This document shows, piece by piece, positions 4,815-64,000 of a stretch of 64,000 nt of DNA. The translations under genes were made by a program, and so were the position numbers. The DNA is from Bilabrum cf. latius (Eukaryota), in the NCBI GenBank assembly GCA_965178125.1, contig OZ237739.1, positions 1,116,001 through 1,180,000 on the forward strand, in the 5' to 3' direction. Below the pieces are notes generated by a model. It saw only the letters and a list, made by a program, of their open reading frames with translations. It made no database searches and was not told where the DNA came from. Each line of letters starts with the position of its first letter. The first letter of the stretch is position 1.

Positions 4815-4881
4815 ATCCGGAGACGAGACGTGGTACTACACAGGGCTGCGGCAACAGGCATCCGGAGACGAGACGTGGTAC
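4815..4881. repeat. 22-bp perfect direct repeat (ATCCGGAGACGAGACGTGGTAC x2) in a divergent intergenic region
   Basis: Copies at 4815-4836 and 4860-4881, between the IleRS start (-) and the membrane-protein start (+). Confidence 0.85.
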
Positions 4882-21063: not shown

Positions 21064-21238
21064 ATCGTCCCCTTGACAGCTCCGCAGCAGCTGAGTGGGC
21101 TCGACTGGTCGATTTTCAGGGTAGGATTGACGCCTTGGGTCGCAGGGAGGTTCCGTTCAGGCGCCTTTGGTCGCAATATCGTACGTGCACGCAACTTTGC
21201 AATGACGCGCAGGCTAACATGTCCTTTACTTTACCACC

Positions 21239-31750: not shown

Positions 31751-32037
31751 AATAAATATTCGTTGGCAAAATAACCGACTTCACTGCACAGAGCTGGCAT
31801 AGGCGGGAAACGAAAATTGCGTCTAGTTTCATTCGTCACATGGTGGCTTGCTCGGCCGTTTCGTTCGTTCAAATTACAACCATTAACAAGAGCTTTTGGG
31901 GAGGTTATTGATACTCTTACTGGTACTGCGTAACTATTGACTCTGTTGTCTAAGTAGTCTCGGGTTGAGACTAGAATTTTGGTGCGAGCAGTTTGAATAC
32001 AAGCAACCAGTTGCGTAGCTCCGCTGACTCGTGCGAT

Positions 32038-41000: not shown

Positions 41001-41514
41001 GCAGCTGCCCCTGCCCGAGGACTGGGAGGGTCCGGGCAGCGAGCTTCTTGAGGACCTGTCGCAGAGATGGGACGTGGCTGGTGGTACGCCCAGCAGAGGA
41101 AATCCGAGGCGCGGTGCCAGCGAAAGCAAAGCAGAGGAAGGACAGGCAGTTGCAGCTACGTTGGACCAGCGGTAGTCTAGGCGATCGCAAGCCAGGGCAC
41201 CGGCTCCAGATGGCAGCTCCATCGCGATGTCTCTGTCTCCTGAATCGGACAGTGTGCAGGAAAATGAGCCCGGGCTTGGTTCTGGGGCATTGCTCGGTCA
41301 GGAAGGGCGCACTGCACGGAGGGTCATCAGGGGGAGGGGTTCGCGGGCGGGGGCAGCGCAGCCAGGGAGGGGCCGGGGGGTTGGCTTGGAGGCTATGTCG
41401 GGGGTCCGCGCGGCCCGTCCGTCTGTGCAGGTGCCTGCGGGGCAGGACTTGACAGAGATGGCGTCCAGCGTGCTGGATACGCTTGGATTGCTTGAGGGGG
41501 ATGAGACCGAGTGA
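32038..41514 (+). CDS. Giant intronless protein (about 3158 aa): Gly/Ala-rich N-terminus, long central coiled coil and an R/S/K-rich disordered C-terminal third
   Basis: Track ORFs starting at 32203, 32590, 33595, 34096, 35179, 35902, 36511, 36790, 37078, 37489 and 41227 all share one frame and are interrupted only by TAG, often in Q/E-rich context (QQQHDDF[TAG]EQLKQQ). Ends in TGA. Confidence 0.8.
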
Positions 41515-42846: not shown

Positions 42847-45800
42847 ATGTCGTTGCTATCAGATGCATCGATCCAGTAGCGCCCAACCTGTCTCCGTATG
42901 GTCGGAGTTAGGCCGGGGCAAGAGCCACAGCTGGTGCCTCTTCTCGGGATGCAAGTCAAGGTAGACCTTCAGATTGCCGTCGGGTGAGAAAATTTTTGGG
43001 CAATTAATAAGTTGACTAGTTTGATACTAGTTTTGCGGCTTCGGTGGGTCGTCATGAAGTAGAGTCAGGGCATTTCCTGAGGTTGCTTGGGTGGATTCGT
43101 TTAGCTTGCACGTGCCACCCTGCCGCCAGCGATGACTGGGACTGCTGGGAGGTAGCATCTCGCTCACAACTGAATAATGCTTTGCACAGCATTACGTTGA
43201 CTCTATCAAGGCTGTTCACGGCCGACATGGTTTGCCCAAGGTTGTGGCTGGCATACTGACAAGCGCTCTGCTCAGGTTCCGTTGCACACGATTAACCTTC
43301 TGCGGCCTGGAATTGTACGGAAACGATGCATTGCGCGTCAGAGTGACATAGCTCGTGTCTCTCAACCCTATTTGTCGATCCAACCGTGTCGTGCTTCCAC
43401 CATCCGTCCCATTCTCGTCCGGTCCGAGCAGGCTTGTCAACATCCGAGCGCGCTTTGCGAACCCGCTGTCATCCCCCATCGACGTCGTGATTGAAGTACC
43501 CACACAGGAGCGCAACACCACGATCTCGAGCGCCACCGCCTACCTCGCTGATGGTCGCGCCGTGGACACTCAGGTCGTGGACACGAGCGAAGCCGCCCAG
43601 CATGCGCCCAACGAGGACATGATCCGCACAGCCAAGGAATTCAGCCCGGATCAAGCCACCGCGTACAACCCCAATTCCTTCCGGCTGCCTGTGGCAGGCG
43701 TGCCTGCCGAGTCAGAGGTAGCCGTTGACGTCAGCTACTTCCAGACGCTCGATTTCGACAATGGCGAGTACAAGATCGTCGTGCCGACCCAGCTGCCGCA
43801 CGCCTACATGCCAGCATCCGGAAACGCCATGGAGGTGCTCCGTGTGGACGCCGCCGTGAACGCAGGCACCTCAGAGGCCTCTTGGGGCTGCGCCTCGCAC
43901 CCGATGCAAACCAAGGCAGGGCCGCCCCCCGCGCCCGTGGGCACGTTCGTCAAGCCCGCCTACACCACCACAGTGCAGCTGAACGGACAAACGGTGACGG
44001 TGCAGATCCCCGAGGAGACCTTCAGGCATGCCGCGGCCGAGAAACGAATGGACGTGGGTGTGCCTGGGTTTATCGGAGGGGGCGGCGGAGACGCTGGTGC
44101 TGCACCGCAAGGCGCTGCAGGCTCGCCCTCGGCGCACCCTGGATTCGGCGGGGGCGCGCCTGCTCCTGCCCCCGCCCCATCTGCCCCTTCTCCCGCGGTG
44201 CAGCGGCAGCAGCAGCTGGCCCAGGAACTGGCGATGCAGGGCAAGGCCGGCCCGGTGCGGTTCGAGCTGGAGCCCAGCCTCGGCCGGCAGTGGGCGAACC
44301 AAGACTTCGTGCTGTCGTACAAGGCCTGGTCCCGTGACATTCTGTGCAACGCCGTACTGGAGCCTGACAGGGATGAGCGAGGCATGGCCAAGAAAGAAGA
44401 CGGGTCCTTCGTTATGTTCATCGCACCTCCTGCTACGGGCTCGGGCGAGACGGCACCTCGAGACGTCGTCTTCTTGATCGACAACTCGTATAGCATGCAT
44501 GGGTCTGCCATGCGACTGGCCAAACAGGCCCTGCAAGAGTGCCTGAAGCTGCTGGCCCCAACCGACAGGTTTTCCATTGGAGTTTTCAACCATCGCATGC
44601 AGTGGTGGAACGGATCGCAGACGCGGTACAACAAGGCTTGGGATGAGGCGAAATCGGGCCAAGAAGGGGGCGAAGGCAAGTTTTTCGGCGCTGACAAACG
44701 AAGTGCCGCGCACCAGTTCGTGGGCTCGATCGAGACGAACGGCGGCACCAACATCATGAGGCCGATGATGTCCGCGCTCGACATGCAGCAAAAGGTGCAG
44801 GGGTATGTCTAGGGCCGAGCAGACGCCCAGCAGCGCGTACCAGTAGTGTTCTTGATCACGGACGGTGCGGTGGGAAACGACAAGCAGATTTGCAGCCGGG
44901 TCAAGGATAGGAACGACGAGGCGAGGATGAACGGGCAACAGCTCACGAGGGTGTTCACCTTCGGGCTGGGCGCGTTCGTCAACGACCATTTTCTGACCTC
45001 ACTCGCGCAGCTCTCCAGGGGCAAAGCTGAGTTCGCGCTGCAAGAGGAAAGCATCGAGCCGAGCATCGTGCGGCTGATGAAGGCATCGAGTGACCCCGCT
45101 CTTCTCAACATCATGTTCAAGATGCCCAGCAGCATTCGGGAGATCGAATTCTACCCGTACCCCATCCCTGATCTCTACCGAGGGCAGCCCGTCGTCGTGT
45201 CGGGGCGGTACACGGGCCCCCATCCGCACGAAATCAAGGTTCGTGGCACCCTGCCTAGCGGTGGAATCAAGGATATCATCGTGCAGCCCGTGTTCTCTCA
45301 GTCGGTTCCCGTGCGTCGCATGTTTGCCAAGGCGCAGCTGGACCTGCTGATGGCATCCCACTGGCTCATGCCCGGTGGCAGCATAGCGGCCGAGGACCAG
45401 CGCAAGAAGATCGTTTCAGTGAGCAAGAGGCACGAAGTGCCGTGCCCGTACACCACCATGATTGGATACACTGGGAAGACAGGTGATATATACGGCAAGA
45501 GACAGGCGCAGTACCACTCAAACTTCGGGGGCTGGGGGCGTGGCTCAAGCGGTGGCGGCAGCAGCGGGGGAGGGGCAGCCGCTGCGGCCGCGTCTGCTGG
45601 AAGACACGGAGGCAGCGGCGGCGGCCCTTCCGGTGGTTTCAGCGGTGGCGGCGCGGGCGGTTACGCGGCATCTGGCGGGGCCGCGGGCGGAGGCCAGACA
45701 CCGGGCTTCGGCTCCGACGACGGCTGGGGCAGCGTGCCCGGCGCCGGCAAGACCAAGAACTCTGCCTTGCCCAAGCCAGGCTTTGGGGGGACTACGGGCA

Positions 45801-46723
45801 CCACGGCGGGTCTCGGAAAGAGCTCCACAGCCACCGACCCCGCGAATCAGTGGACCGCTGGGAAGACTGCTGCGGTGGCGGGTGGCGTCGTCGCTCTCGG
45901 GGCTACCATCGGGGCGGGAGTGGCTCTGGGGAGCTACGTGGCTGCAGGTGGAACCGCCTCTGGGCTGGTGGGAGGGGCCATCAGCGGGGGCGGGAGTGCG
46001 CTCAGCAGCCTGGGTCAAGCTGCGTCTGGGGGAGTTAACGCGATATTCGGCGGGATCAACTGCGACTGCTTTGGCGTGGACTGCGGTCCCTGCGGCGGCC
46101 TGCCCGGGTGTCTCGACGGACTGCTGGGCGACTTTGGCCACTGCGCGGGGGGCTGCCTGTCGTGCCCCGGCGACTGCATAGGTAAGGTGGGCGAGGGCCT
46201 GGGCGACTGCTGCAAGGACGGTGGAGGCTTCATTCAGGGCGCAGGGTCCATATGCCACGGCGTGGGAGAGTCTTTGGGGACCTGCTTCTCGGGTGCAACG
46301 GACTGTGCGGGGAATGCCTGTGGCAGTATCGGTGCCGTGCTGGCGAACTGCGCGGGGCGAGCAGGTGACTGTTCCCTGGGCGGTGCGTGCAACGGTGAGT
46401 GCATCGGCGGGTGCGTGAACAGCATGCAGAACTGCGTGGGGGGGCTGGGGGGCGCCATCGGTGGCTTGTGCAATGGTGGGTGCGCACCTCTCTCCGGGCT
46501 GGGCGATTGCCTGGGCGGGTGCTGTGGGAGCGTTGTCGGCGTCGCAGGGGAAGGGCTTAAGGCACTTCCTGGCCTGTGCAGTGGGCTGGGAGGGTGCGTG
46601 TCCGGTGTGTGCTCTGGCGCTGGCGGTTGCGTGGGCATGCTAGGTGAGGTCGCGAAGGACATCGGTCCATGCCTCGGCAGCGTTTGCGATGTGCTTGGGG
46701 GCCTTCTTGGAGCACTACGCTGA
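42847..46723 (+). CDS. VIT + von Willebrand A domain protein (VWA5/ITIH-like) with a Gly-rich linker, a hydrophobic segment and a Cys/Gly-rich tail
   Basis: Exon 1 (42847-42983, LVPLLGMQVKVDLQIAVG) splices across intron 42984-43431 to LVNIRARFANP (VIT). MIDAS elements DVVFLIDNSYSM, GGTNI, FLITDG and RVFTFGLG. TAG 44810 lies inside the vWA fold. Ends in TGA. Confidence 0.85.
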
Positions 46724-46867: not shown

Positions 46868-49800
46868 ATGAGCACGGCGGCCGAATAGCTCATAGAATTT
46901 GGTGAATTGTCTGGGCTTCGACCATCAAGGGGTACTGCGAAGGCATGGCAAGGTTTAGCTGACAAAGTTGACGAGTCGCAACGAACGGCAGCGCTGCCAG
47001 GCTGCTTGTGGGCACTTGCAACCATGCGGTAAGGGTTTCTGTATTGGTGTGGATAGCATAACCGCTTACTCAATTGTACTAGCAGTCTTCATTGAATGAA
47101 TGAACCACCTCGCAGGGCTGGGAGCGCAGACGAAGGCCGCGCTGTCCTGAAAGCCCTAAAGGCTGCACCAGCTACCAAATCAGATCCGCTAGTATGGGTA
47201 TCACTAGCACTACTCGAAGCAGAACAAGGTAAGTACTATTTGTAAGTGATTTTGGAGCCAGCAATTCATGTTTGATGGATATCCAGAGTCTGAGCGCTGC
47301 TGTTTTCTGCGCGCAGGAAAAACATCTTCGGCGCGCATGACCATGCGTCTCGCCAAGATGGGCTGTCCTGAAGCATTGAAGCCGTTGACACTTCTAGAGG
47401 ATGCGATTCGCAGCGGTTGTGGGCTCGGCTCCTTTAACCCATTCGATGTTTGCAAGGGGGATGCCGCACCAGCAGATGCAGCCGGCGCAGCCAAGGCCGC
47501 ATCACACCCGAAGAAAATCGCAGCCATGATGTCCGAGTCTTTAGAAGCTGCCGCCGCTCGTAGAAAACGCACTGGTGGCTCCGCCCGGCTGGGCCTTCCC
47601 CAGCGGGTGCCTGCGTCCCAAGCGAGCACCGATGCGGAAGACGAGCAGCAGACCGGCGAGCAACCCGGAGCAGGAGCAGGAGCTAGCGTAACCAAGATGC
47701 CTAGGCGGCCCGCTGGCGTAAGCACCCTGTCTCCTGTGTAGGAGCAGGGTATGGGCGGGCGCAGGAGCAGCGGAGCCTCTGCCGCTGGGACCAGCTAGCG
47801 GGTAGGTGCCAGACCTGCTGCAGCGGGCGCTGCTGCAGCCAAAGGCAAGGCCAAGTCGGTAGGATTTGCGCTCCCTGACTACATCAAGGAATTTGCGCCT
47901 CGCAAGAAGGCATCAAAATCGTCGAGGTCGTCTTCGTCCTCCTCTGCCTCGTCGTCTGCCATTCGCACAAGCACTGGCTCGGCTGCAGCGGAGCCCCAGG
48001 CGGGAGCACGCAGAAAGGCATCGAGCGCTAGCGTACCAAATCAGGAGCGCCCAGATGGGCAGATAGAGTCGTTTGAGCGCAGATAGTCGAGCCAGTCGCA
48101 GCAGGCCGGCGCAGCAAGCGCCAGGGCGCCGAGCTCCAGCCACCGCAATGAGAGCGCAATCACGCCGGGTCCGGCCCACGGATCCCGCTAGGCAGCGTCC
48201 CAGCCCTCGCCCGATACGATCGGACTGCCCGTTGTGACACCAGCGGCGCGACGGCACTCGGGCGCCGGTCGGCGGCAGGGCGCCAGCATGCCAAGAGGGG
48301 GCGGCGGCGGTCCGGGCCGCGGCACGCAGGAGGACGATGGAGATGATCTCGACCTGGCCAGCCCGGAACCTTTCATGCCACGATCTACTGCTCTGCTCGG
48401 CGGAGAGTGGACCTCGAGCTCACCCGACAAAGAAGAGCTGCCAGCCAGCAGCAGCAGCAAGGCGAAGCCAAGCGATGCCGCATCCAAGTCTGATTTGAAC
48501 GGGGCTGGGAGCAGCCGGAAAAGGCCTAGAAGCGCCACGAAGATTAGCAAAAGCAGCAGCGTAAGTAAGCTTGCTACCGATTAGCCCGCGACTGAGTTAG
48601 CGGCTGAGTCAGCATCTGATGGCAAGCCACCTGAGTCGGCTGCGAAGCGCAGACGCACCGAGAGTGGGAAGGCAGAAGCTTCGTTCGAGCCGAGCTCCAG
48701 CTCCAGCGGCAGCCAGGTCAAGATGAGCGATGTCGACAATGTCGAAGGCGGAGATGATGACGAGGATGAAGATATCGAATTCAACCCTGGACGAGGCAAC
48801 AGGCGAAGCCGAAGCCGCAGTCGCAGCCGGAGTCGTCGGCGCCGTGGCGGAAACAATAGCAGCAGCGGGCTGGCGGCCGGAGCCGGCGTCGAGAATGAGG
48901 ACGGCAGAAAGGGCGCGAGGCAGGCCATCGGAGCCGTTCCTGCGTCGAGTGCAGCGAGGCCTAAAAAAGCTGCGTCGCCTTCGTCGCCGACCGCAGATAT
49001 AAGAGCTGCGTCACCGCCCAGCAGGCGCCGCTCTGGTTCCAGTGCGCCGGGAGCAGTCGATGAAAGCGAGAAGAGAAAAGAAGCCGGCGACTTGGGCGAT
49101 CGAGCCAGCCCCGAATCTCCTACCATCGTGTTCAACAAGAAAAGGAAAGGCGGCGGCAGGGGCAGGCAGACCTCCAGACGGAGGGAAGACCACAGTGACG
49201 GCGAGCGGCCCCATGCATCCTCGGCCGAGCGACCGGGTAGGGCGACCAGCTCCGCAGCTGCTTCTGAAGATCCTGAGACGGCAAGCCATGCTGTGCAGAG
49301 AAAGACATCGGGAAGGTCGGGCGGCAGCCGCTCCGGCGACCGCAAGGTATCGCCATCGGAGGATTCCGGGCCCGTGTCAGTCCTCTTTGGCGGTGCGTCC
49401 GGCAGCCGCTCCGTAATCAAGGTAAACGGAAACCCCTACCTCAGGCTAGACGTGGTGGGCAAAGGCGGCTCCAGCAAGGTCTTCAGGGTGCTCGGGAAAG
49501 ACCTAGGCGTGTACGCCCTCAAGAGGATCCGCCTGTCGAGGATGGACCGGGCCTCGCTCGCCAGCTACACGAACGAGATAGCGCTGCTTCGAAGGCTGCG
49601 GCACGGTCGACACATCGTGCAGCTGCGGGAGGCCCAGGTGGACATCGGGAGCAAGACCATCTACGTGGTGATGGAGCTGGGCGAGACCGACCTTCACGGG
49701 CTGCTGAAGCGAGAGAGGTCGGCGGCCAAGGAGCGCGAGGATGAGCTGGACAAGCTGCGGGCCGGTGCTGCCGGCAAGAGGGGCCGCAGGGGTGCGGGGC

Positions 49801-51353
49801 CCGCCTCGCCGCAGCCTGCGGACAGGGTACCTGCCGAGACGGTGGCCACGGGAGGGCTAGATGAGAACTTCATTCGTCTTGTGTGGCAGCAGATGCTGCT
49901 GGGCGTGCGAGCGATCCACGAGGCGCGCGTGGTGCACGGAGATCTGAAGCCGGCCAACTTCGTCTTCGTGCAAGGTGTGCTGAAGCTCATCGACTTTGGA
50001 ATTGCAAAGGCCATCAGCGCCGATACTACAAACATTTACAGGGAGACGCAGGTGGGGACTATCAACTACATGTCGCCAGAGGCCATTCTCGACACCTCGG
50101 CGCAGGCAGGTGGTGCTGCCGCGGCCGCAAAGCATCGAGGCATGAGGATGCGGGTGGGCCGTGCCTCGGACATCTGGTCGCTGGGCTGCATCCTTTACCT
50201 CATGGTGTACGGCCGGACCCCCTTCGCGGACCTCAGCCTGATCCAGAAGCTCAGATGCATCACGGACGAGTCCTACGAGATCCCCTTCCCGGACCTGCCG
50301 GCCAGGCACGCCCCGCTGATGGACGTCATGAGGGCGTGCCTGCGGAGAGACCCCACGGACCGTCCCACGATCGACGGGAGGTCTGGTCTGCTGGAGCACC
50401 CCTTCCTGCGGCCAGGAGCAGCGACAGATGGCGGCGCCGCCTCATCGCTCCCTGAGGGCACGATTGCCGTGGACCGCAGCACGATCGAGTCGGCCGCACG
50501 AGCCCTCACGCACCCATCCGTGGCCGGGGCCGTGTCTGGGCGCGGCGCGGCCGGAGACGACGCTGTCAAGCGGATCGGGGGTGCCCTGTTCGAGCAGCTC
50601 CGCGGAGCGGTGGATGGGCACGCCATGATCGACCGGCAGCAGATGATGGACGAGGCCGGCGTGCGCCCCCTGCCCTCCTCTTCCTCCTCGTCTTCCTCGT
50701 CGTCCTCTGCTTCTACTTCCTCATCGCCGCCCTCGCTGCCCTCCCAGGCACCCGGGCCAGCAGCCTCTGCATCGTCCCGCGCAGCCTCTCTGCACGGCCA
50801 CTCACCTGTGCATGCCCGAGCAACGGATCCTGCCGGGCACCAGCTCGCTCGACAGAAACTGGCCTTTGCCGAGGAGCTGGGCAGCGTGGCTCTGGGCCGG
50901 GGCACGAAGCGGAGCGGCCGCGGAGGACGGTTTAAGTCGAAGAAGAAGAAGGGACCGTCAGCCTCCGCTGCCTAGCACGGTGGAGAGGACAATACGGGCT
51001 TCGCAGGCGGGCTGGCAGCCGGAATCGCAGCCGCAGCTGGAGCTCGCAGCAAGCGTGTGGAGGAACAGGGCTAGGCCCCCAGCCCGCGGTCCAGGTCCGC
51101 CGCCGCAGCCCCGCGGACCAACGGAGGGAAGCTGGCGGCGGCGCTGCAGGAGAGGTAGGCGAACCTGCGGCACGTGGATCCTGCGTCAGCGGGCGGCAAG
51201 GCCAAGCTTGCGGCGCAGGGCATGGCAGGAGCGAGCGCGATGGGGCAGCTGCTCAAGCAGCGGTTCGCCAAGGTGCAGAGCTCGCTGCCAGCTCACTTGA
51301 AGCGCGCACCGACAGATGGAGAGACTGGGGAGATCTCGTGGATTGATGGATGA
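46868..51353 (+). CDS. MPS1: Mps1/TTK dual-specificity kinase: N-terminal TPR-like region, long disordered linker, kinase domain and WH2/VCA-like tail
   Basis: Kinase motifs GKGGSSKVF, YALKRI, NEIALL, VMELGETDL, HGDLKPANF, LKLIDFGIAKAISADTTNIYRETQVGTINYMSPEAI and SDIWSLGCILYLMVYGRTPF are diagnostic of Mps1. The spliced 5' exons give LVWVSLALLEAEQ|GKTSSAR...PLTLLEDAIR, similar to the TTK TPR region. Multiple in-frame TAGs. Ends in TGA 51351-53. Confidence 0.9.
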
Positions 51354-51477: not shown

Positions 51478-53136
51478 ATGTCGAAGTGAGAGTTCATGGA
51501 TACCATGCGAATCAGATGAGAATGCACAGACTTGTTTTCATGATGCATTCTGATGTTGTCGTGAAGTCTTGGACTCTGTTTCTCAGACGTGATGCAGATG
51601 GCCTACACCTTATCGGCTACTCTGCATGTCATCATACTGCTGATGAATTAGCGAGTTTGCTAGCTCAGCCAAAGTTCAGGGCTGTGGTAAACTGGTAGCA
51701 TGTAAACTGGGTAAGGGTTAAGACTCCAAGATGCAACCAAATTCAAGATCGTAGCCTCTTGCTCTCATCCTCGTCGAGATTATGTGCGTCGAATGCAAAG
51801 TTGATGACTGTATTACATTCAATGGTTATTAATCTGTTGCTGCCCCGAGCAAGCATGCATCATTGACATGCTAGGTTGCTGCGTGGAAGACTCGATCCAA
51901 ACCCTCTGATGCGCCGACCCTGCGCAGCATCTCCGGCCACCACTGTACGAGGCAGCTTGGTGGAATGAAGCTGCAAAAGTTCGTCTGCTTTGCTAGGCGG
52001 GAGCGTACCCAGATATACGAGAGTCTTCTGTGAGAACGGAGCGCAACTGCAACTGCAGGACGCGTGCCGCAAGTTGCTGTATCCCACGCAATCCGGCCCA
52101 ACTCATCCAAACGAATACAGGGACTGGAAACACCTCTGTATAGTGCTGCGACGAAGCACAATCTGGAGGCAGTCGAAGCGTGCCTTCAATGTGGTGCGGA
52201 CCCCGATGCACCCAACATAGTGAGACTTCTGGCACGCTGCTGGCACGCTGCAGGCCAGGCCTTTGGGAAATGGAACAAAAGTATTCCTTTCTTGTCCGAT
52301 CTGCGTAGTTTCTTATTTAAAGAGCTGCGTTTTTCGCATCGACTTTCCTTTGCTTGCAGTCAGGCGTCACCCCGCTGGTTCACGCACTGAGCCACAACCA
52401 CCTCCCAACCGCGATGCTCCTAGTAGCGTTCGACGCCGACATTTTCCATCCTGACGTTGGACCGCGCTTGGCCGCTCTCGGGTGCCCATTTCCCCAATTC
52501 CCAACTCCTTCCGCTGGATCCGGTGGCGCCGATGGGGACGAGTATTCGCGTGCCTACCGCCGATGGCTCGCCTCTGACTCGGATGACACGCCCCGGGGGG
52601 GGCCTGCAACCGTGAGACGCGCAAAAGAACCGGATGCAGCCGCCGGTGACGCGGCTGGCGCGGGGCCTCAGTCGTCGGTGATGGCCAAGTGGAGCGCCGT
52701 GGAGCACATCTACTTCCGGTTTGTGGCAGCGGCCGACGATGCGACCATGGAGAGGTGCCGTCGCCTGGGCCTGGAGAAACACCGGCCCCGGGGGATGCAG
52801 CTGCTGCGTTTCAGGAGGGCAGTGGAGGCCAAGAGGGACGCGGGGAGGGTGTTCCGAGCAGCCAGCGAGGGCAGGCCCATGGAGCTGGCCAGGAGGCTGA
52901 GGCTGGGCAAGCTGGCGGGCGGCTTGGCCATCAAGGGTGTCGTGGACGGGGACTTGATGTCACCCCAGAAGGCCGCTCGGCTTGGAGGACACAACGAGTG
53001 CGTGAAACTGCTGAATCAGGCAGCGTTCGGTCTCATGGCCCAGGTCGGCAGGGAATCCTCGGGGGTAGAGGGCAGCGGGATGGCGGGCCAGGTGGATGCT
53101 TTGGTGTTTCCGAAGGGAATGTAGGGCGGAAAATAA
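51478..53136 (+). CDS. Ankyrin-repeat protein (copy 1) with the same C-terminal module as the 10.5-13.8 kb gene
   Basis: Exons 51478-85, 51587-51710, 51928-52029 (PPLYEAAWWNEAAKVRLLC[TAG]AGA), 52121-52219 (TPLYSAATKHNLEAVEACLQCGADPD) and 52360-53136 (GVTPLVHAL...). Ends PKGM[TAG]GGK-TAA. Confidence 0.8.
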
Positions 53137-53349
53137 CAAATTGTGCGCTGTGTATGTGCCTGTGTAGACTAGGACGTCCATCGTAGAGCGCAACTCAAAC
53201 GAATATAGCTGTGAAATCTGGCAAAGGGGAGCTGCACACAGACAGCCTAACCGCGACAATGGACTTTCGTCCGTGACCGAATATAGTAGAGAATGCCTTA
53301 GTCACTAGTAGTAGTCTATATCTCCTGCTCCGGGCCTGAGATCCCACTA

Positions 53350-53516
53350 GAGGGGCCCCCCACTTTGGTGGGACTTGCGGGACAGCACTTGCAGGACGCG
53401 CTGACTCGGTGGAGGGAGGAGTCGAGGCGGGCTGGGCGCCCGGGGACTTGTGCCCGGGTCCGGGCTTGGGGGGTGCCGGGTGGGGGGGGGGGGGTATCTG
53501 GAGGGGATGGTGTGAT
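53350..53516 (+). pseudogene. Internally deleted remnant of the Nup107-like fragment
   Basis: Concatenation of three pieces homologous to about 55812-55880, 56685-56735 and 57561-57600. Confidence 0.6.
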
Positions 53517-53972
53517 TGGAAGTCGCATTAGCATGGTCACGGGGCTTAGCATGTGGGCGTCATGGGGATACACATCCATGTGGGCTGGTCTATGCCAGCC
53601 TTGGTATCTGTGCAAACCCTGGATCGACTGCAGCAACAGACTGCGTGCTGGCAGCGCGCGGAGCCCACGTTCCATTGCGGAACCTCGAGGCCAGGAAGGG
53701 TTCACTCTTGGCTAGTCATCGTGCCTATCGAATAGTACGAGAAGTGTCATCGTGCAAATTCAATCTGTCTGTTTAGGCTTCTTCGAGTTGCCATCACTGC
53801 GGCTAGTTGGGCTTCCAGACAAGGCCCCGATATCCCTGACCTAGTGCTGGAGCAGACTCGAAGCCGTGGTGTAGCTCGACTAGTGTGAAATTCGTGTTGA
53901 GTCCGATCAACTTGAAGTGGAGACAAGCTTGTAAGACTGTCCAGGCTTTGCTTGCATCTTGGCGTGTTTTCC

Positions 53973-55613
53973 ATGGCAGGTCCGGATGAGGTGATTGACC
54001 TGGTGAGCAGTGATAGTGAAGAAGAGTTTGAGGGAAACCCCGGCGGAAGCATGGTTGTAAGTGGTCGTGCGGAGGCATCACCTGGACTACTAGGTGCCGT
54101 TGTATCACGGAGTGGGCGAGCTGGGCGAGGCAGCATGGCTGTTGGTCCAGAGTTGTAGTCAGCATCAGGTTCAACAGCTGCATTGATGACATTGGCTTCT
54201 GGAGTCTAGTCAACTGAATCAGTGTCATCTAGTGCTACCAGCACAAGGGCCCGTTTGGGGCAGAAGAGAGTCCGTGAAGACTTCGAGGCTGCCGAAGAAG
54301 GTGGCGATGCAGTGGATGAGCACGGTGCAAGCAACAAGAAGAAGAAGAGGAGGAGAGAGGAGCAGAGTCCAGCGGCAGGGGAACTCACCGGCGATAGTGG
54401 CAAGGGATACGATTGCTCAGTGTGCGGCAAGCGCTTTGGACGCCCAGGCCATCTCACGACGCACATGAGGACTGTGCACCTCGGGGAGCGCAATCACGAG
54501 TGCTCTGTGTGCGGCAAGCGCTTTGGGGTGGCAGGCAATCTCACGAAGCACATGAGGACTGTGCACCTTGGGGAGCGCAATCACGAGTGCTCTGTGTGCG
54601 GCAAGCGCTTTGGACGCCCAGGCCATCTCACGACGCACATGAGGACTGTGCACCTCGGGGAGCGCAATCACGAGTGCTCTGTGTGCGGCAAGCGCTTTGG
54701 GGAGGCAGGCAGTCTCTCGACGCACATGAGGACTGTGCACCTCGGGGAGCGCAATCACGAGTGCTCTGTGTGCGGCAAGCGCTTCGGGGAGGCAGGCAGT
54801 CTCTCGACGCACATGAGGACTGTGCACTATGGGGAGCGCAATCACGAGTGCTCTGTGTGCGGCAAGCGCTTTGGGGTGGCAGGCAATCTCACGACGCACA
54901 TGAGGACTGTGCACCTTGGGGAGCGCAATCACGAGTGCTCTGTGTGCGGCAAGCGCTTTGGACGCCCAGGCCATCTCACGACGCACATGAGGACTGTGCA
55001 CCTCGGGGAGCGCAATCACGAGTGCTCTGTGTGCGGCAAGCGCTTTGGGGTGGCAGGCAGTCTCTCGACGCACATGAGGACTGTGCACCTTGGGGAGCGC
55101 AATCACGAGTGCTCTGTGTGCGGCAAGCGCTTTGGGGAGGCAGGCCATCTCACGACGCACATGAGGACTGTGCACCTTGGGGAGCGCAATCACGAGTGCT
55201 CTGTGTGCGGCAAGCGTTTTGGGCTGGCAGACAGTCTCTCGACGCACATGAGGACTGTGCACCTTGGTGAGCGCAATCACGAGTGCTCTGTGTGCGGCAA
55301 GCGCTTCGGGGTGGCTGGCAGTCTAAAGACGCACATGAGGACTGTGCACTATGGGGAGCGCAATCACAAGTGCTCTGTGTGCGGCAAGCGCTTTGGGAAG
55401 GCAGGCCATCTCACGACGCACATGAGGACTGTGCACCTTGGGGAGCGCAATCACGAGTGCTCTGTGTGCGGCAAGCGCTTTGGGGTGGCAGGCAATCTCA
55501 CGACGCACATGAGGACTGTGCACCTTGAGGAGCGCAATCACGAGTGCTCTGTGTGCGGCAAGCGCTTTGGGAAGGCAGGCAATCTCAAGAAGCACATGAA
55601 TGCAATGCACTGA
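53973..55613 (+). CDS. SIM-like motif + NLS + 14-finger C2H2 zinc-finger array protein (ZF-A)
   Basis: ATG 53973 reads MAGPDEVIDLVSSDSEEEFE, then TAGs at 54156 and 54207, KKKKRRR and 14 x 29-aa CSVCGKRFGxxxxLxxHMRTVH repeats (87 bp). Ends in TGA. Confidence 0.93.
54408..55610 (+). repeat. 87-bp coding minisatellite, 14 units
   Basis: Near-identical units CACGAGTGCTCTGTGTGCGGCAAGCGCTTTGG....ACGCACATGAGGACTGTGCACCTTGGGGAGCGCAAT. Confidence 0.97.
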
Positions 55614-55811
55614 TAGGCTTGGAAACGCACTGTGCATGACGTGTTGAGCAACCCATGCCTGCTGGCACCAGTTGCAAAGGCAATCCTGCCTTTCTGCTTT
55701 ATTGCTGGCGCGGTTTTCTCTCTCGTGGGAAGAATGAGCTGCAGGCGAGGAATTCTGGACAGTCACATCTGGACTTGAGCGGCAATCGAGTGGCGTGGAC
55801 TTGAGCCCCTG

Positions 55812-57600
55812 GAGAGGGCCCCCACTTTGGTGGGACTCGCGGGGCGGCACTGGCAGGCCGCGCTGGGTCGGTGGAGGGAGGGGGCGAGCGGGAAGCACAG
55901 GCGGGCAGAGCTGCTGGCGCTGCGGGCGTGGGCCATGCTGGCGGAGGCAGTGGCGGGCGCAGGGGCCGGGGCCCGCGGGTGGCTGCAGGCACCCATGGAG
56001 GCGGCAGCAGAGGTGGCGGCTGGATGCCGGTCTTTGCCCCAAGAGACAGGGGCGATCGGCTGGGGGGCAAGGCTCGGCGGGGCTTCGGGTGCTGCAGATA
56101 CATCCGGGACCAGCAACAGCAGCAACAGCAACAGCAGCAGCGGTAGGCGAGCGAAGGCCATTCGCACTCGATTGGCAGCGAGAGCCGCTGCTGCCGGAGT
56201 GCTGGGCCCCGAGGACGCTGGCTTGGGAGGACTGGTGCCCGGACGTGCCGACCTGTGCGTGGTGTCCATCCGCTTGCACGCGCAGGTTCCCTCGCGGCCC
56301 ATCTCACGAGACCAGGAGGAGGGCGATGAGGACGAGCGGGTGGAGGCATCGGCAGGGGCAGGGGCAGGGGCAGGGGCAGGGGCAGGGGCAGGGGCAGGGG
56401 CAGGGGCAGGGGCAGGGGCAGGGGCAGGGCGAGGCGGTGAGCGCAGCAAGTAGGTTCCGGTCTTCGTGGCTTGATCAGCCGCAAGTCCTGGTCCGTGCAT
56501 GCACTCGGAATCGGAATAGGTATCGGAATCGGACTCGCTCGGGGAACACGGCGGCGCCTCCGCCGCGCCCGCGCCTTTATCCGCTCGCGAGGTCAGCCAG
56601 GCCATGGCGAGCCTCGAGAGCGACTGGACCCGGCCCCGCGGAGCCAACTGCGGGCCATGGGACGAGGCCGGCCTGGGGCTGGATGCGGGGCGGCTGGGCG
56701 CCCGGGGACTCGCGGCTGGGTCCGGGCATGGGGGGGACACGCCCCCCCTGTGCTGCCGCGTGCCCACCGCCGGCTGGGTGAGACGGGCCGTGGTGCCTCA
56801 GCTGGTCTGGATGATGCACGACGTGATGCATCGCATTGCGGCGTGGGCCATGCCCCTGGTGCGGGGAGAGGCCGTCATGGGAGTGCCCCGGGGCGGCGAG
56901 GGAACAAGCGCGGAGGCGAGCACGAAGCAGGTGCTCGAGCGCATGCTCGCTTTGGCTGGGGACCAGGGCTCCAGAGGGGCTGTCTCGGCGCTGTGCTGTG
57001 CCACTGGAGGTGCAGGTGCAGGTGCATGTGCATGTGCATGTGCATGTGCATGTGCAGGTGGTGGCTCGTTGGGCTCGAGCTTGAATGCAGTGCACTGCAG
57101 CGACAGGGTGTGCGTCCTGCTGCGCCTCGCCATGCGGGTGGGATCGGCTGTTGCAGACCCCTGACGGCATCGGCACCGCAAGCGCTGCTTCCTCTTCCTC
57201 GGGTAGCCCGAGCCCAGTGGCTGTGGGCTCCGTTGGAATCGGCTCAGGGGCCAGGAGGAGGAGGAATAGGAGGAGGAGGCAGGGGGTGTTGCGCCCGCCA
57301 TCTGGGGGTGGGTCTGGCCTGGGCTCGGTGGACGAAGGGGCTGGGTCCGGGAGCGGGGAGGGGGCGGCGATGGTGTTCGGGGGCGGGGAGGGGGTAAGCG
57401 TGGGGGACCGTCAGGGCAAGGGGTGGGCGCTGGGTGTGCCGAGCGCGGGGGTACGGGAGTGCTTCGCCTGTAAGTATGGTCCCCGAGGGAAGGCGACGGA
57501 GAAGAGGGAGGTGAAGCGGCTGCCCACTGCCGTGGCCGAGTCGGCTCGTTTGCTTCTCGAGGTGCCGGGGCGGGGGGGGTATCTGGAGGGGATGGTGTGA
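55812..57600 (+). pseudogene. 5'-truncated, disrupted gene fragment resembling the Nup107/Nup84 C-terminal region
   Basis: Reads RAELLALRAWAMLAEA...VRRAVVPQLVWMMHDVMHR...AMRVGSAVADP...GVRECF...EVKRLPTAVAESARLLLE, which parallels the Nup107 C-terminus as I recall it. In-frame TGA at 56472-74, a frameshift near 57160 and no 5' part. Confidence 0.5.
56352..56430. repeat. (GGGGCA)n microsatellite, about 13 units
   Basis: Perfect hexamer run. A (CATGTG)n run also occurs at about 57024-57055. Confidence 0.95.
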
Positions 57601-58065
57601 TTGGAAATCACCTTGGCATGGTCACGGGGCTTAGCCTGTGGGCGTCATGGGGATACACATCCATGTGGGCTGTTCTATGCCAGCCTTGGTATCTGTGCAA
57701 ACCCTGGATCGACTGCAGCAACAGAACAGACTGCGTGCTGGCAGCGCGCGGAGTCCACGTTCATTGCGGAACCTCGAGGCCAGGAAGGCTTCATTCACTC
57801 TTGGCTAGTCATCGTGCGTATCGAATAGTACGAGACGTGTCATCGTGCAAATTCAATCTGTTTGTATCGGCTTCTTCAAGTTGCCATCACTGTGGCGAGT
57901 TGGGCTTCCAGACGAGGCCCCGATATCCCTGACCTAGTACTGGAGCAGACTCGAAGCCGTGGTGTAGCTCGACTAGTGTGAAATTCGTTTTGAGTCCGAT
58001 CGACCTGAAGTGGAGACAAGCTTGTAAGACTGTCCAGGCTTTGTTTGCATCTTGGCTTGTTTTCC

Positions 58066-59793
58066 ATGGCAGGTCCAAATGAGGTGATTGACCTGGTGAG
58101 CAGTGATAGTGAAGAAGAGTTCGAGGAAAACCCCGGCGGAAGCATGGGTGTAAGTGGTCGTGCGGAGGCATCACCTGAACTACTAGGTGCCGTTGTATCA
58201 CGGAGTGGGCGAGCTGGGCGAGGCAGCATGGCTGTTGGTCCAGAGTTGTAGTCAGCATCAGGTTCAACAGCTGCATTGATGACATTGGCTTCTGGAGTCT
58301 AGTCAACTGAATCAGTGTCATCTAGTGCAACCAGCACAAGGGCCCGTTTGGGGCAGAAGAGAGTCCGTGAAGACTTCGAGGCTGCCGAAGAAGGTGGCGA
58401 TGCAGTGGATGAGCACGGTGCAAGCAACAAGAAGAAGAAGAGGAGGAGGAAGGAGCAGAGTCCAGCGGCAGGGGAACTCACCGGCGATAGTGGCAAGGGA
58501 TACGATTGCTCTGTGTGCGGCAAGCGCTTTGGACGCCAAGACACTCTCAAGACGCACATGAGGACTGTGCACCTCGGGGAGCGCAATCACGAGTGCTCTG
58601 TGTGCGGCAAGCGCTTTGGGGTGGCAGGCCATCTCTCGACGCACATGAGGACTGTGCACCTTGGGGAGCGCAATCACGAGTGCTCTGTGTGCGGCAAGCG
58701 CTTTGGGGTGGCAGGCAGTCTAAAGACGCACATGAGGACTGTGCACCTCGGGGAGCGCAATCACGAGTGCTCTGTGTGCGGCAAGCGCTTTGGACGCCCA
58801 GGCCATCTCACGACGCACATGAGGACTGTGCACTATGGGGAGCGCAATCACGAGTGCTCTGTGTGCGGCAAGCGCTTTGGGGTGGCAGGCAGTCTCTCGA
58901 CGCACATGAGGACTGTGCACCTTGGGGAGCGCAATCACGAGTGCTCTGTGTGCGGCAAGCGCTTCGGGGAGGCAGGCAGTCTCTCGACGCACATGAGGAC
59001 TGTGCACTATGGGGAGCGCAATCACGAGTGCTCTGTGTGCGGCAAGCGCTTCGGGGAGGCAGGCAGTCTCTCGACGCACATGAGGACTGTGCACCTTGGG
59101 GAGCGCAATCACGAGTGCTCTGTGTGCGGCAAGCGCTTCGGGGTGGCTGGCAGTCTAAAGACGCACATGAGGACTGTGCACCTTGGGGAGCGCAATCACG
59201 AGTGCTCTGTGTGCGGCAAGCGCTTTGGGAAGGCAGATCATCTCACGACGCACATGAGGACTGTGCACCTTGGGGAGCGCAATCACGAGTGCTCTGTGTG
59301 CGGCAAGCGCTTTGGGAAGGCAGGCAATCTCACGAAGCACATGAGGACTGTGCACCTTGGGGAGCGCAATCACGAGTGCTCTGTGTGCGGCAAGCGCTTT
59401 GGGGAGGCAGGCAGTCTCTCGACGCACATGAGGACTGTGCACCTTGGGGAGCGCAATCACGAGTGCTCTGTGTGCGGCAAGCGCTTCGGGGTGGCAGACA
59501 GTCTCACGACGCACATGAGGACTGTGCACCTTGGGGAGCGCAATCACGAGTGCTCTGTGTGCGGCAAGCGCTTCGGGAAGGCAGATCATCTCACAAAGCA
59601 CATGAGGACTGTGCACCTTGGGGAGCGCAATCACGAGTGCTCTGTGTGCGGCAAGCGCTTTGGGAAGGCAGGCAATCTCACGACGCACATGAGGACTGTG
59701 CACCTTGGGGAGCGCAATCACGAGTGCTCTGTGTGCGGCAAGCGCTTTGGGGTGGCAGGCAATCTCAAGAAGCACATGAATGCAATGCACTGA
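58066..59793 (+). CDS. SIM-like motif + NLS + 15-finger C2H2 zinc-finger array protein (ZF-B)
   Basis: ATG 58066 reads MAGPNEVIDLVSSDSEEEFEE, with TAGs at 58249 and 58300 and 15 x 87-bp fingers. Ends in TGA. Confidence 0.93.
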
Positions 59794-60065
59794 TAGGCTT
59801 GGAAACGCACTGTGCATGACGTGTTGAGCAACCCATGCCTGCTGGCACCAGTTGCAAAGGCAATCCTGCGTTTCTGCTTCATTGCTGGCGCGGTCTTCTC
59901 CTCGTGGGAAGAATGAGCTGCAGGCGAGGAATTCTGGACAGTCACATCTGGACTTGAGCGGCAATCGAGTGGCGTGGACTCGAGCCCCTGGAGAGGGCCC
60001 CCACTTTGGTGGGACTCGCGGGGCGGCACTGGCAGGCCGCGCTGGGTCGGTGGAGGGAGGGGGCG

Positions 60066-61154
60066 AGAATGGAACTGCAACTGCAGGACGCGTGCCGCAA
60101 GTTGCTGTATCCCACGCAATCCGGCCCAACTCATCCAAACGAATACAGGGACTGGAAACACCTCTGTATAGTGCTGCGACGAAGCACAATCTGGAGGCAG
60201 TCGAGGCGTGCCTTCAATGTGGTGCGGACCCCGATGCACCCAACATAGTGAGACTTCTGGCACGCTGCTGGCACGCTGCAGGCCAGGCCTTTGGAGAAAT
60301 GGAACAAAAGTATTCCTATCTTGTCCGAGCTGCTTAGTTTCGCTGCGTTTTTCGCATCGACTTTCCATTGCTTGCAGTCAGGCGTCACCCCGCTGGTTCA
60401 CGCACTGAGCCACAACCACCTCCCAACCGCGATGCTCCTAGTAGCGTTCGACGCCGACATTTTCCATCCTGACGTTGGACCGCGCTTGGCCGCTCTCGGG
60501 TGCCCATTTCCCCAATTCCCAACTCGTTCCGCTGAATCCGCTGGCGCCGATGGGGACGAGTATTCGCGTGCCTACCGCCGATGGCTCGCCTCTGACTCGG
60601 ATGACACGCCCCGGGGGGGGCCTGCAACCGTGAGACGCGCAAAAGAACCGGATGCAGCCGCCGGTGACGCGGCTGGCGCGGGGCCTCAGTCGTCGGTGAT
60701 GGCCAAGTGGAGCGCCGTGGAGCACATCTACTTCCGGTTTGTGGCAGCGGCCGACGATGCGACCATGGAGAGGTGCCGTCGCCTGGGCCTGGAGAAACAC
60801 CGGCCCCGGGGGATGCAGCTGCTGCGTTTCAGGAGGGCAGTGGAGGCCAAGAGGGACGCAGGGAGGGTGTTCCGAGCGGCGAGCGAGGGCAGGCCTCTGG
60901 AGCTGGCCAGGAGGCTGAGGCTGGGCAAACTGGCGGGCGGCTTGGCCATCAAGGGTGTCGTGGACGGGGACTTGATGTCACCCCAGAAGGCCGCTCGGCT
61001 TGGAGGCCACAGCGAGTGCGTGAAGCTGCTGAATCAGGCAGCATTCGGTCTCATGGCCCAGGTCGGCAGGGAATCCTCGGGGGCAGAGGGCAGCGGGATG
61101 GCGGGCCAGGTGGATGCTTTGGTGTTTCCGAAGGGAATGCAGGGCGGAAAATAA
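60066..61154 (+). pseudogene. Ankyrin-repeat gene copy 2, 5'-truncated (only the last two exons remain)
   Basis: Near-identical to about 52032-53136, but homology begins inside the intron, so exons 1-3 and the ATG are missing. Ends PKGM-CAG-GGK-TAA. Confidence 0.7.
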
Positions 61155-61367
61155 CAAATTGTGCGCTGTACATGTGCCTGTGTAGACTAGGACGTCCATC
61201 GTAGAGCGCAACCTAAACGAATATAGCTATGAAATCTGGTAAAGGGGAGCTGCACACAGACAGCCTGACCGCGAGAATGGACTTTCGTCCGTGACCGAAT
61301 ATAGTAGAGCATGCCTTAGTCACTAGTAGTATATCTCCTGCCAGTGCTCCGGGCCTGAGATCCCACT

Positions 61368-61533
61368 AGAGGGGGCCCCCACTTTGGTGGGACTTGCGGG
61401 GCAGCACTGGCAGGCCGCGCTGACTCGGTGGAGGGAGGAGGCGAGGCGGGCTGGGCGCCCGGGGAGTTGAGCCCGGGTCCGGGCTTGGGGGGTGCCGGGT
61501 GGGGGGGGGGGGTATCTGGAGGGGATGGTGTGA
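61368..61533 (+). pseudogene. Second internally deleted Nup107-like remnant
   Basis: Same tripartite deletion product as 53350-53516. Confidence 0.6.
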
Positions 61534-61989
61534 TTGGAAATCACCTTGGCATGGTCAGGGGGCTTAGCTTGTGGGCGCCATGGGGATACGAATCCATGTG
61601 GGCTGGTCTATGTCAGCCTTGGTATCTGTGCAAACCCTGGATCGACTGCAGCAACAGACTGCATGCTGGCAGCGCGCGGAGTCCACGTTCATTGCGGAAC
61701 CTCGAGGCCAGGAAGGGTTCACTCTTGGCTACTCATCGTGCCTATCGAATAGTACGAGAAGCGTCATCGTGCAAATTCAATCTGTCTGTCTAGGCTTCTT
61801 CAAGTTGCCATCACTGTGGCGAGTTGGGCTTCCAGACAAGGCCCCGATATCCCTGACGTAGTACTGGAGCAGACTCGAAGCCGTGGTGCAGCTCGACTAG
61901 TGTGAAATTCGTTTTGAGTCCGATCAACTTGAAGTGAAGACAAGCTTGTAAGACTGTCCAGGCTTTGCTTGCATCTTGGCGTGTTTTCC

Positions 61990-63282
61990 ATGGCAGGTCC
62001 AAATGAGGTGATTGACCTGGTGAGCAGTGATAGTGAAGGAGAATTTGAGGGAAACCCCGGCGGAAGCATGGGTGTAAGTGGTCGTGCAGAGGCATCATCT
62101 GGAGTGCTGGGTGCCGTTGTATCACGGAGTGGGCGAGCTGGGCGAGGCAGCATGGCATTTGGTCCAGAGTTGTCGTCAGCATCAGGTTCAACAGCTGCAT
62201 TGATGCCATTGGCTTCTGGGGTCTAGTCGACTGAAGGGGTGTCATCTAGTGCAACCAGTACAAGTGCCCGCTTGGGGCAGAAGAGAGTCCGTGAAGACTT
62301 CCAGGCTGCTGCAGAAGGTGGCGATGCAGTGGATGAGCACGGTGCAAGCAACAAGAAGAAGAAGAGGAGGAGAAAGGAGCAGAGTACAGCGGCAGGGGAA
62401 CTCACCGGCGATAGTAGCAAAGAATACGACTGCTCTGTGTGCGGCAAGCGCTTTGGGGAGGCAGACAATCTCACGACGCACATGAGGACTGTGCACCTTG
62501 GGGAGCGCAATCACGAGTGCTCTGTGTGCAGCAAGCGCTTTGGGCAGGCAAGCAATCTCACGAAGCACATGAGGACTGTGCACTATGGGGAGCGCAATCA
62601 CGAGTGCTCTGTGTGCGGCAAGCGCTTTGGATTGGCAAGCAATCTCACGAAGCACATGAGGACTGTGCACCTTGGGGAGCGCAATCACGAGTGCTCTGTG
62701 TGCGGCAAGCGCTTTGGATTGGCAAGCAGTCTCACGACGCACATGAGGACTGTGCACCTTGGGGAGCGCAATCACGAGTGCTCTGTGTGCGGCAAGCGCT
62801 TTGGGGAGGCAGGCCATCTCACGAAGCACATGAGGACTGTGCACCTTGGGGAGCGCAATCACGAGTGCTCTGTGTGCGGCAAGCGCTTTGGGCAGGCAAG
62901 CCATCTCTCGACGCACATGAGGAGTGTGCACCTTGGGGAGCGCAATCACGAGTGCTCTGTGTGCGGCAAGCGCTTTGGGGAGGCAGGCCATCTCACGACG
63001 CACATGAGGACTGTGCACCTTGGGGAGCGCAATCACGAGTGCTCTGTGTGCGGCAAGCGCTTTGGGGAGGCAGGCCATCTCACGACGCACATGAGGACTG
63101 TGCACCTTGGGGAGCGCAATCACGAGTGCTCTGTGTGCGGCAAGCGCTTTGGATTGGCAAGCAGTCTCTCGACGCACATGAGGACTGTGCACCTCGGGGA
63201 GCGCAATCACGAGTGCTCTGTGTGTGGGAAGCGCTTTGGGGTGGCAGGCAATCTTAAGAAGCACATGAATGCGATGCACTGA
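61990..63282 (+). CDS. SIM-like motif + NLS + 10-finger C2H2 zinc-finger array protein (ZF-C)
   Basis: ATG 61990 reads MAGPNEVIDLVSSDSEGEFE, with one TAG at 62224 (the other site is TCG at 62173) and 10 x 87-bp fingers. Ends in TGA. Confidence 0.93.
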
Positions 63283-64000
63283 TAGTCTTGGAAATGCACT
63301 GAGCATGACGTGTTCAGTAACCCATGCCTGCTGGCACCAGTGGGAAAGGCAATCCTGCCTTTCTGCTTCACTGCTGGTGCGGTCGTCTCTCTCGTGGGAA
63401 GGAAGAGCTGTGGTCAGTATCCTGTTATATGTACTCGGACATCAGGACTGAAGCAACGGGGAGCAGAGGCGAGACGGAAGAGGAGGTGGGCGCAGAAGGA
63501 CAGGAGGTGGAGAAGAATAGGGGGGCACCGGCACAGGCGGCGACAGTGCGGTGTCAACAGGGAGAACACAACGGGAGGAATGGGGGCTCCAGGTGCAAGG
63601 CACGAGGGAGACGCGAGTGGCAGCGGACTGCATGGCCAGCAGCACGCAGAGGGCCAACAGGTGGGTGGACAGATGGGGCGCACGGCAGGTCGGCCAGGAC
63701 CGGCGCGTGCAAGCTGAAAGGATAGGGCCAAGGTGGCAATGCAGGGAGCAAAGCACACGGTCCCTAGGGCGGGGAACAGGAACAGGAAGCCATGTGGCGA
63801 CGAGGCCAGTCGGGTGCATGGGGAAAGTGGTGTGTACATTCGTAGTGTCAGATGAATACCGCATTCAGGTGGACCGGTGAAGAACCAGTCGTTCGGGATG
63901 AAGCCCAGTGGGTCCGCGGGACCGGGGGCAGGAATTTTTCTTTTTGGTAACTGCCAACCAGTGGGGATTGCAGCAGCCGTGAAGATGAGCCAATGGGTGT

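Follow-up and report, generated by a model that had tools for sequence, protein, structure and literature searches.

The 64,000 nucleotide stretch of contig OZ237739.1 from Bilabrum cf. latius (assembly GCA_965178125.1, positions 1,116,001 to 1,180,000 of the forward strand), here termed the window, carries three tandem paralogues on the + strand, labelled gene A, gene B and gene C, that end in zinc fingers repeated every 87 bp. The locus raises the question of what kind of genes these are and what their fingers might be changing to recognize. The original prediction described them as a PRDM9-like hypervariable minisatellite gene family and a candidate reprogrammable DNA-recognition system. 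On balance, the locus is probably best explained as a cluster of nuclear genes, specific to this lineage and recently duplicated, that encode evolving, putatively DNA-binding arrays, with selfish or repeated DNA favoured as the target. The parts of this explanation differ in strength. A diversifying nucleic-acid-binding family is probable; that the targets are selfish or repeated DNA, i.e., transposons, integrated viruses or satellites, is plausible but is put forward tentatively.

Passages of Najafabadi et al. and Wells et al. present fast-diversifying poly-zinc-finger families as peculiar to animals, and diversification of this type is placed in animals only in passages of two papers (PMC5588721, PMC10547256). 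A protist family with the same signature and a minimal effector end would offer a natural test of how general such arms races are. In addition, a regular 29-residue scaffold with natural helix variants would be useful for recognition studies.

Array structure and the location of variation

Arrays A, B and C are found at positions 54408-55610, 58501-59790 and 62425-63279, respectively. Tandem Repeats Finder detects a period of 87 in each without indels: 13.7 copies with 91% matches at 54409-55599, 14.7 copies with 92% matches at 58502-59779 and 9.7 copies with 93% matches at 62426-63268. Translation yields 14, 15 and 10 fingers, in agreement with the repeat analysis and with the prediction of three tandem paralogues with fingers of exactly 87 bp. 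The predicted boundaries are also correct, as the first ATG starts at 53973 and the last base of the third stop codon is 63282. The motif C-x2-C-x12-H-x4-H is present in all 39 fingers, the start-to-start spacing is 29 amino acids in 36 of 36 cases across the three arrays, and the finger consensus is HECSVCGKRFG-x4-L-x2-HMRTVHLGERN. Both the H-x4-H spacing and the LGERN linker had been predicted; LGERN accounts for 30 of the 36 full fingers, with YGERN in five and LEERN in one. The first finger (YDC) and the last (..NLKKHMNAMH) are conserved across the three arrays, and the last is shortened in A, B and C by a stop codon that directly follows it. The arrays are coding minisatellites with an 87 bp unit. 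Finger number differs among the genes, as does finger order, and the orders quoted in the original prediction are those of the translation. A six-frame motif scan of the window found no further zinc-finger arrays and only four isolated chance matches.

Membership in the C2H2 class is seen from Pfam scores. PF00096 (cut-off 25.2) matches array A at 276.5 bits in 14 stretches and array C at 202.5 bits in 10 stretches, and zf-H2C2_2 (PF13465) reaches 304 bits. The Pfam matches listed for the arrays (the top 25 of 33 families and of 35) all belong to zinc-finger (C2H2) families. An AlphaFold2 single-sequence model of C predicts ten EE-EE-helix units, the beta-beta-alpha fold, with a predicted local distance difference test (pLDDT) score of ~62-83. 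The closest solved chains are DNA-bound arrays, with ZNF568 5v3m_C (3.3e-57) at the head, followed by Aart, CTCF, ZBTB24 and PRDM9 5v3g_D (3.3e-25). When aligned to ZNF568, the LGERN linker falls on its TGEKP/TGERP linkers, with one residue gapped in each finger, and it displays the five-residue, TGEKP-like form found in DNA-binding poly-zinc-finger arrays.

Variation was assessed in the 36 full fingers, with the three truncated terminal fingers left out. The six positions of highest entropy among the 29 are helix -1, +3, +5, +2, +1 and +6, which are the positions where amino-acid variation had been predicted. The excess replacement at -1, +3 and +6 that characterizes PRDM9 is found here also, these positions being first, second and sixth of 29 in entropy. 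Residues at -1 are R (5), V (10), E (10), L (4), K (5) and Q (2); at +2, G (25), D (6) and S (5); at +3, H (13), N (8), S (14) and T (1); and at +6, T (30) and K (6). Of the 18 nucleotides in the six helix codons 15 are variable, whereas the scaffold has 15 variable nucleotides out of 69 (Fisher p = 2.5e-6).

The helix codons, compared by the Nei-Gojobori method over 630 finger pairs that are not independent of one another, display a synonymous proportion (pS) of 0.0995 and a nonsynonymous proportion (pN) of 0.304, a pN/pS of ~3.06. For the 23 scaffold codons pS is 0.089, pN 0.019 and pN/pS 0.21. As pS is nearly equal in helix and scaffold, the excess consists of replacements and does not reflect mutation rate. 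The scaffold is under purifying selection and replacements gather at the helix residues that contact bases; within this small, linked sample the pattern is genuine and has clear statistical backing. The genes are also constrained outside of the arrays, as judged from an N-terminal pN/pS of 0.35-0.41 among the paralogues. The statement that the scaffold is almost invariant even at synonymous sites was too strong, since its pS of 0.089 is like that of the helix codons and lies inside the paralogue N-terminal range of 0.038-0.133. The earlier interpretation is upheld in describing the arrays as minisatellites that encode canonical C2H2 fingers whose base-contact positions are diversified.

The 39 fingers comprise 34 different nucleotide sequences and 25 different helices. 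Nucleotide-identical fingers are found at other positions and in other genes (A3=A7, A5=B6, A8=B5 and A9=C7=C8), and blocks of fingers recur, A3-A5 being 98.1% identical to B4-B6 and A2-A5 97.4% identical to A6-A9. Scaffold identity is 96.5% within genes and 96.6% between genes. The best colinear alignment pairs 13 fingers of A and B; the helix is the same in only two of these pairs, and the difference across the alignment is 0.137 in helix codons versus 0.011 in the scaffold. The N-termini of this pair differ by a pN of 0.015 and a pS of 0.038, and pS is 0.13 for both A-C and B-C. The shared fingers, recurring blocks, equal scaffold identity and helix turnover together point to gene conversion or unequal exchange acting alongside selection that favours novel contact residues, a mode of evolution like that of PRDM9 and of KRAB, FiNZ and ZAD zinc-finger clusters.

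TAG as a sense codon and the N-terminal region

In the standard code, the array frames display no ATG upstream of the fingers, and the ATGs at 53973, 58066 and 61990 are cut off by in-frame TAGs. As read from the sequence of the window, TAG is a sense codon in this organism and TGA is a stop. An isoleucyl-tRNA synthetase (IleRS) aligns to solved IleRS through two TAGs read as X, and a TAG is situated directly ahead of the KMSKS motif (THGFITDG-X-GRKMSKSLGN vs SHGFALDGEGRKMSKSLGN). A VWA_3 match extends from profile positions 2-85 of 155 (3.4e-6) to 2-155 of 155 (5.5e-12) when TAG is read through. With TAG as sense there are open reading frames of 3181, 2372, 1635, 1490 and 1367 residues, all stopping at TGA; in a control with TGA as sense, the longest has 1239. 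Examples of large frames obtained with TAG as sense are 476-4948(-), 43178-46723(+), 31969-41514(+) and 14038-21156(-). In seven large frames, all of which end in TGA, TAG comprises 74 of ~12,400 codons. The residue aligned to TAG is Glu at two places in bacterial IleRS and is encoded by CAG (Gln) in an ankyrin paralogue, which suggests Glu or Gln as the amino acid. No tRNA genes were found in the 64-kb window, and stramenopile UAG reassignment was not seen among the matches listed in a literature search. This reading of TAG, a point absent from the original prediction, changes the zinc-finger gene model. It is of interest in its own right and matters for annotation, as standard-code gene calls in this genome will be truncated.

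With TAG as sense, gene A (53973-55613) extends from ATG to TGA over 546 codons and has TAG at codons 62 and 79. Gene B (58066-59793) has 575 codons with TAG at the same two places, and gene C (61990-63282) spans 430 codons, of which number 79 is the sole TAG; its codon 62 is TCG (Ser). The zinc-finger genes are probably single exons from the ATGs at 53973, 58066 and 61990. An alternative model for gene A has a GTAAGT...TAG intron of 153 nt at 54057-54209; it is unlikely but is kept at low weight because the adjoining ankyrin-like gene has a clear phase-0 GT-AG intron with a pyrimidine tract at 52220-52359. The single-exon model is favoured because TAG is sense, the 153 nt stretch is in frame, one of the TAG positions is occupied by TCG in gene C, and a relative, P0361, is open throughout. 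P0361 is a 136-amino-acid fragment on a single 1131 nt contig that is 65% identical across 138 residues, including the putative intron stretch, with gaps in-frame only. Divergence of the paralogues across this stretch is 0.048 vs 0.056 and 0.057 beside it. Contigs from four public sequencing runs that fit 53400-54494 have no joint that skips 54057-54209, these runs being probably DNA. The protein is intact under either model.

The predicted protein has three parts: an N-terminal motif of IDLV plus acidic and serine residues, a disordered linker of ~125 residues with a basic run, and 10-15 unbroken fingers that continue to the stop codon. Pfam (E up to 1) offers no match for the 145-amino-acid N-terminus, and a phmmer search with 28 N-terminal residues against solved structures found no chains. 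Disorder is predicted by the AlphaFold2 model of C, in which residues 4-142 have a pLDDT below 50.

The sequence VIDLVSSDSE[E/G]E is found at residues 7-18 in all three genes, as VIDLVSSDSEEE in gene A (53991-54026), at 58084-58119 in gene B and as VIDLVSSDSEGE in gene C (62008-62043). P0361 displays SIDLVSSDEE, and IDLVSSD is conserved in all four sequences, this 65% identical relative included. SUMO-interaction motifs have the consensus [VIL]-x-[VIL]-[VIL] or [VIL]-[VIL]-x-[VIL] beside an acidic or phosphorylatable stretch, and PIAS proteins have an acidic tail. The VIDL core followed by an acidic, serine-rich stretch resembles the PIAS-type motif, and is to be taken as a lead only. The VIDLT core is named for the PIAS SUMO-interaction motif in passages of one paper (PMC4907222); the likeness here consists of a V-I-D-L core and then Ser/Asp/Glu, as a motif match in each of the three genes. 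That it is a working SUMO-interaction motif is doubtful. A basic run, KKKKRRRE at amino acids 122-129 of gene A (54336-54359), has its counterparts at 58429-58452 in gene B and 62353-62376 in gene C, with KKKKRRR at residues 122-128 in all three, and may serve in nuclear localization.

Relatives, comparable systems and rival explanations

Searches of 5.8 billion proteins of near or shorter lengths revealed no family member among the matches listed. The whole-protein search at near lengths returned animal-type poly-zinc-finger proteins only, at no more than 54% identity (best 120 of 2164), and the search among shorter proteins no more than 57% over short parts (best 120 of 257). The N-terminal 66 amino acids had one match among 1.84 billion representatives, P0361, which is the sole relative from all protein and contig searches. 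Metagenome contigs gave 236 pattern matches, with two loci at 23-24% identity that were judged unrelated, and of two pattern matches in viral contigs none was confirmed. Parts of gene A are contained in nine public runs from five organisms. Four of these were compared on 53400-54494 at 90% identity or more, and the distinct contigs fitting this stretch in four organisms number 680, 115, 67 and 35, most at 90-95% identity. Summed depth, a measure that does not give copy number, rises 10- to 100-fold from the 5′ part to the first finger in the four runs. Loose contig ends carry other finger scaffolds, with Cys-x2-Cys variants besides CSVC. These data hint at a large diversified family with sub-families in the four organisms.

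The predicted absence of SET and KRAB domains is borne out. KRAB (PF01352) has no match in the 145-amino-acid N-terminus at E up to 1, PR/SET and SSXRD have none among the matches listed in the Pfam scans, and the model displays no folded N-terminal domain. ZAD (PF07776) is found neither in the N-terminus nor among the best 25 of 33 and 35 array families. FiNZ, for which the library has no model, was judged only by the absence of N-terminal relatives other than P0361. Because the defining domains are absent when tested, the predicted proteins are canonical C2H2 poly-zinc-finger proteins and not KRAB-ZFP, PRDM9 or ZAD proteins. The description "PRDM9-like" fits the mode of array evolution, in that the fingers are homogenized and their contact residues diversified; it fails for the domains that define PRDM9.

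KRAB zinc-finger proteins of tetrapods, e.g., ZNF568, are similar in their tandem clusters, long C2H2 arrays, G-E-K/R linkers and excess of amino-acid change at base-contact positions. This last signature is linked to transposon arms races in passages of Wells et al. (2023, PMC10547256). The Bilabrum genes differ in having no KRAB, in their H-x4-H fingers of 29 amino acids, in a protist host and in arrays that are far more homogeneous (96.5% scaffold identity). The FiNZ-ZNF genes of cyprinid fish and the ZAD-ZnF genes of insects are likewise independent, lineage-specific poly-zinc-finger expansions, and positive selection at contact residues is described for FiNZ genes in passages of the same paper (PMC10547256). 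Both families occur in animals and have a folded or conserved domain at the N-terminus, whereas here there is a motif of ~12 residues in a disordered N-terminus. The nearest protist precedent found, as far as excerpts of that paper go, is polar Bathycoccus, whose clades are enriched in C2H2 zinc-finger and ankyrin families, which is read as cold adaptation (PMC11409870). That organism is also unicellular with C2H2 and ankyrin genes, and in Bilabrum the zinc-finger genes are interleaved with ankyrin-like duplicates; Bathycoccus, however, is an unrelated green alga, and the passages on it contain no analysis of contact-residue diversification (PMC11409870). Literature searches found no report of hypervariable zinc-finger minisatellite arrays in protists.

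In the mechanism proposed, the arrays would change through unequal exchange or gene conversion, and positive selection would favour new DNA specificities. The proteins are predicted to bind DNA sequence-specifically in the nucleus, where the likeliest targets would be fast-changing transposons, integrated viruses or satellites. Through its N-terminal motif, each protein could recruit SUMO-modified chromatin factors, in the role that KRAB has in tetrapods. A more far-reaching possibility, more doubtful still than the SUMO-interaction motif itself, is that of an independent, non-animal, zinc-finger adaptive genome defence, i.e., a large protist family evolving by finger exchange and selection, with SUMO-dependent silencing of transposons and integrated viruses through a minimal motif. 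If true, this would contradict zinc-finger transposon targeting as an animal innovation, as it is presented in passages of PMC10547256, and the slow evolution of non-animal C2H2 fingers, as presented in passages of PMC5588721.

Several observations weigh against a DNA-binding family selected to follow selfish DNA. The sample comprises 39 fingers in three linked genes, and pairwise pN/pS across repeats is pseudo-replicated; a minimum-change count of nonsynonymous to synonymous changes gives 15:4 in the helix vs 7:8 in the scaffold (p = 0.075). Thr occupies +6 in 30 of 36 fingers and Gly occupies +2 in 25, and under the recognition code many fingers would then specify few bases. The residue preceding the first Cys, normally aromatic, is His in 33 of 36 fingers. 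The SUMO-interaction reading rests on one short linear motif. Of the nine public runs none is on record as RNA, which bears on transcription, and the short-read contigs break in the array, with none spanning 53400-54494, which bears on comparison of arrays between strains. No transposon or virus domains were found in five large open reading frames scanned with TAG as X, nor in the scans of the IleRS and kinase.

The same selection signature would result if the arrays tracked fast-changing tandem repeats as binders of satellites, centromeres or telomeres, in a conflict of the centromere-drive type, and not mobile elements. Long arrays with few bases specified per finger suit periodic targets and there are microsatellites inside the cluster, but this is quite unlikely. 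Less likely again is that these are ordinary young transcription-factor duplicates whose helix variation represents relaxed constraint after duplication. The duplication is indeed recent (flanks 93-95% identical), the sample small and the minimum-change p of 0.075 compatible; yet relaxation alone would leave a ratio of about 1 in place of 3 and would affect the scaffold as well, whereas helix-codon pN (0.30) is three times pS and scaffold pN/pS is 0.21 in the same repeats. A PRDM9-type role, in which the arrays would designate sites of meiotic recombination and turn over in response to hotspot erosion, is improbable, and less likely than targeting of selfish or repeated DNA. PRDM9 evolves in the same mode, as a homogenized coding minisatellite with variable finger number and order and diversified contact residues, and PRDM9 arrays are among the solved relatives (5v3g_D, 3.3e-25; 5egb_A, 1.7e-20). 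PRDM9 is, however, one polymorphic gene with KRAB, SSXRD and SET, and the Bilabrum genes form a multigene family of at least three paralogues, probably with many more copies, that have none of these domains nor any folded N-terminal domain.

Recognition of RNA or proteins in place of DNA is given slightly less weight than the PRDM9-type role. The Pfam family zf-C2H2_jaz, of the double-stranded RNA type, reaches 136 bits, with no stretch passing singly, and the predominance of Thr at +6 and Gly at +2 is in keeping with it. The variable positions, however, are exactly the canonical DNA-contact positions, and the G-E-R linkers and best solved relatives are of the DNA-wrapping type. That the arrays are an assembly artefact of collapsed or mis-joined repeats is very improbable. 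Although assembly is difficult for 87 bp repeats whose scaffolds are 96.5% identical and no contig from other runs spans the compared stretch, the three arrays are open and indel-free across 0.86 to 1.29 kb, each has distinct ordered fingers between a conserved first (YDC) and last (..NLKKHMNAMH) finger, and the flanks are colinear between copies.

Duplicated surroundings and neighbouring genes

The zinc-finger genes are part of a larger duplication. A unit at 52045-54403 that consists of an ankyrin-like gene and the zinc-finger 5′ part matches 60073-62420 at 95.3%, and the 0.9-kb zinc-finger 5′ part is present in three copies at 93-95% identity. The ankyrin-like gene (52045-53481, + strand; copy at 60073-61500) has weak Pfam Ank matches (E ~0.002), and its copies have TAG in one and CAG in the other near the C-terminus. 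A conserved upstream region on the + strand that starts at a poly-G run is duplicated with each gene (53482-53972, with copies at 57567-58065 and 61501-61989; 4.7-5.1% pairwise difference). Genes A and B also have a 3′ flank in common (55614-55888, + strand; B copy at 59794-60067, 98.2% identical), and gene C retains only the first 128 nt of it (63283-63410, 89%). Between A and B is a unique, GC-rich 1.7-kb spacer (55889-57566) with two microsatellites, a perfect (GGCAGG)13 at 56351-56429 and (GTGCAT)8.5 at 57010-57060. The window ends 718 bases past gene C, and the cluster may continue beyond it.

An Mps1/TTK-type kinase upstream of the cluster (47268-51353, + strand) has 1361 codons with eight in-frame TAGs, all outside of the kinase domain. 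Among named matches the best are from Cafeteria roenbergensis (55-56%), with thraustochytrids, oomycetes and diatoms next, and identity to any protein is at most 59%; the kinase is thus in accord with the prediction of a protist host, possibly a stramenopile, whose close relatives are absent from the database searched. The five large open reading frames scanned with TAG as X encode the VWA protein and, besides it, giant proteins that are coiled-coil-like or unassigned. The frames at 31969-41514(+), 14038-21156(-) and 26873-31780(-) had no Pfam matches at E up to 1e-4. Under TAG as sense they are single frames of 3181, 2372 and 1635 residues, and the first two display long Glu/Ala/Arg/Gln-rich, coiled-coil-like stretches. 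Several direct repeats of 150-300 nt with 78-89% identity are found in a lower-GC stretch at 11415-13125.

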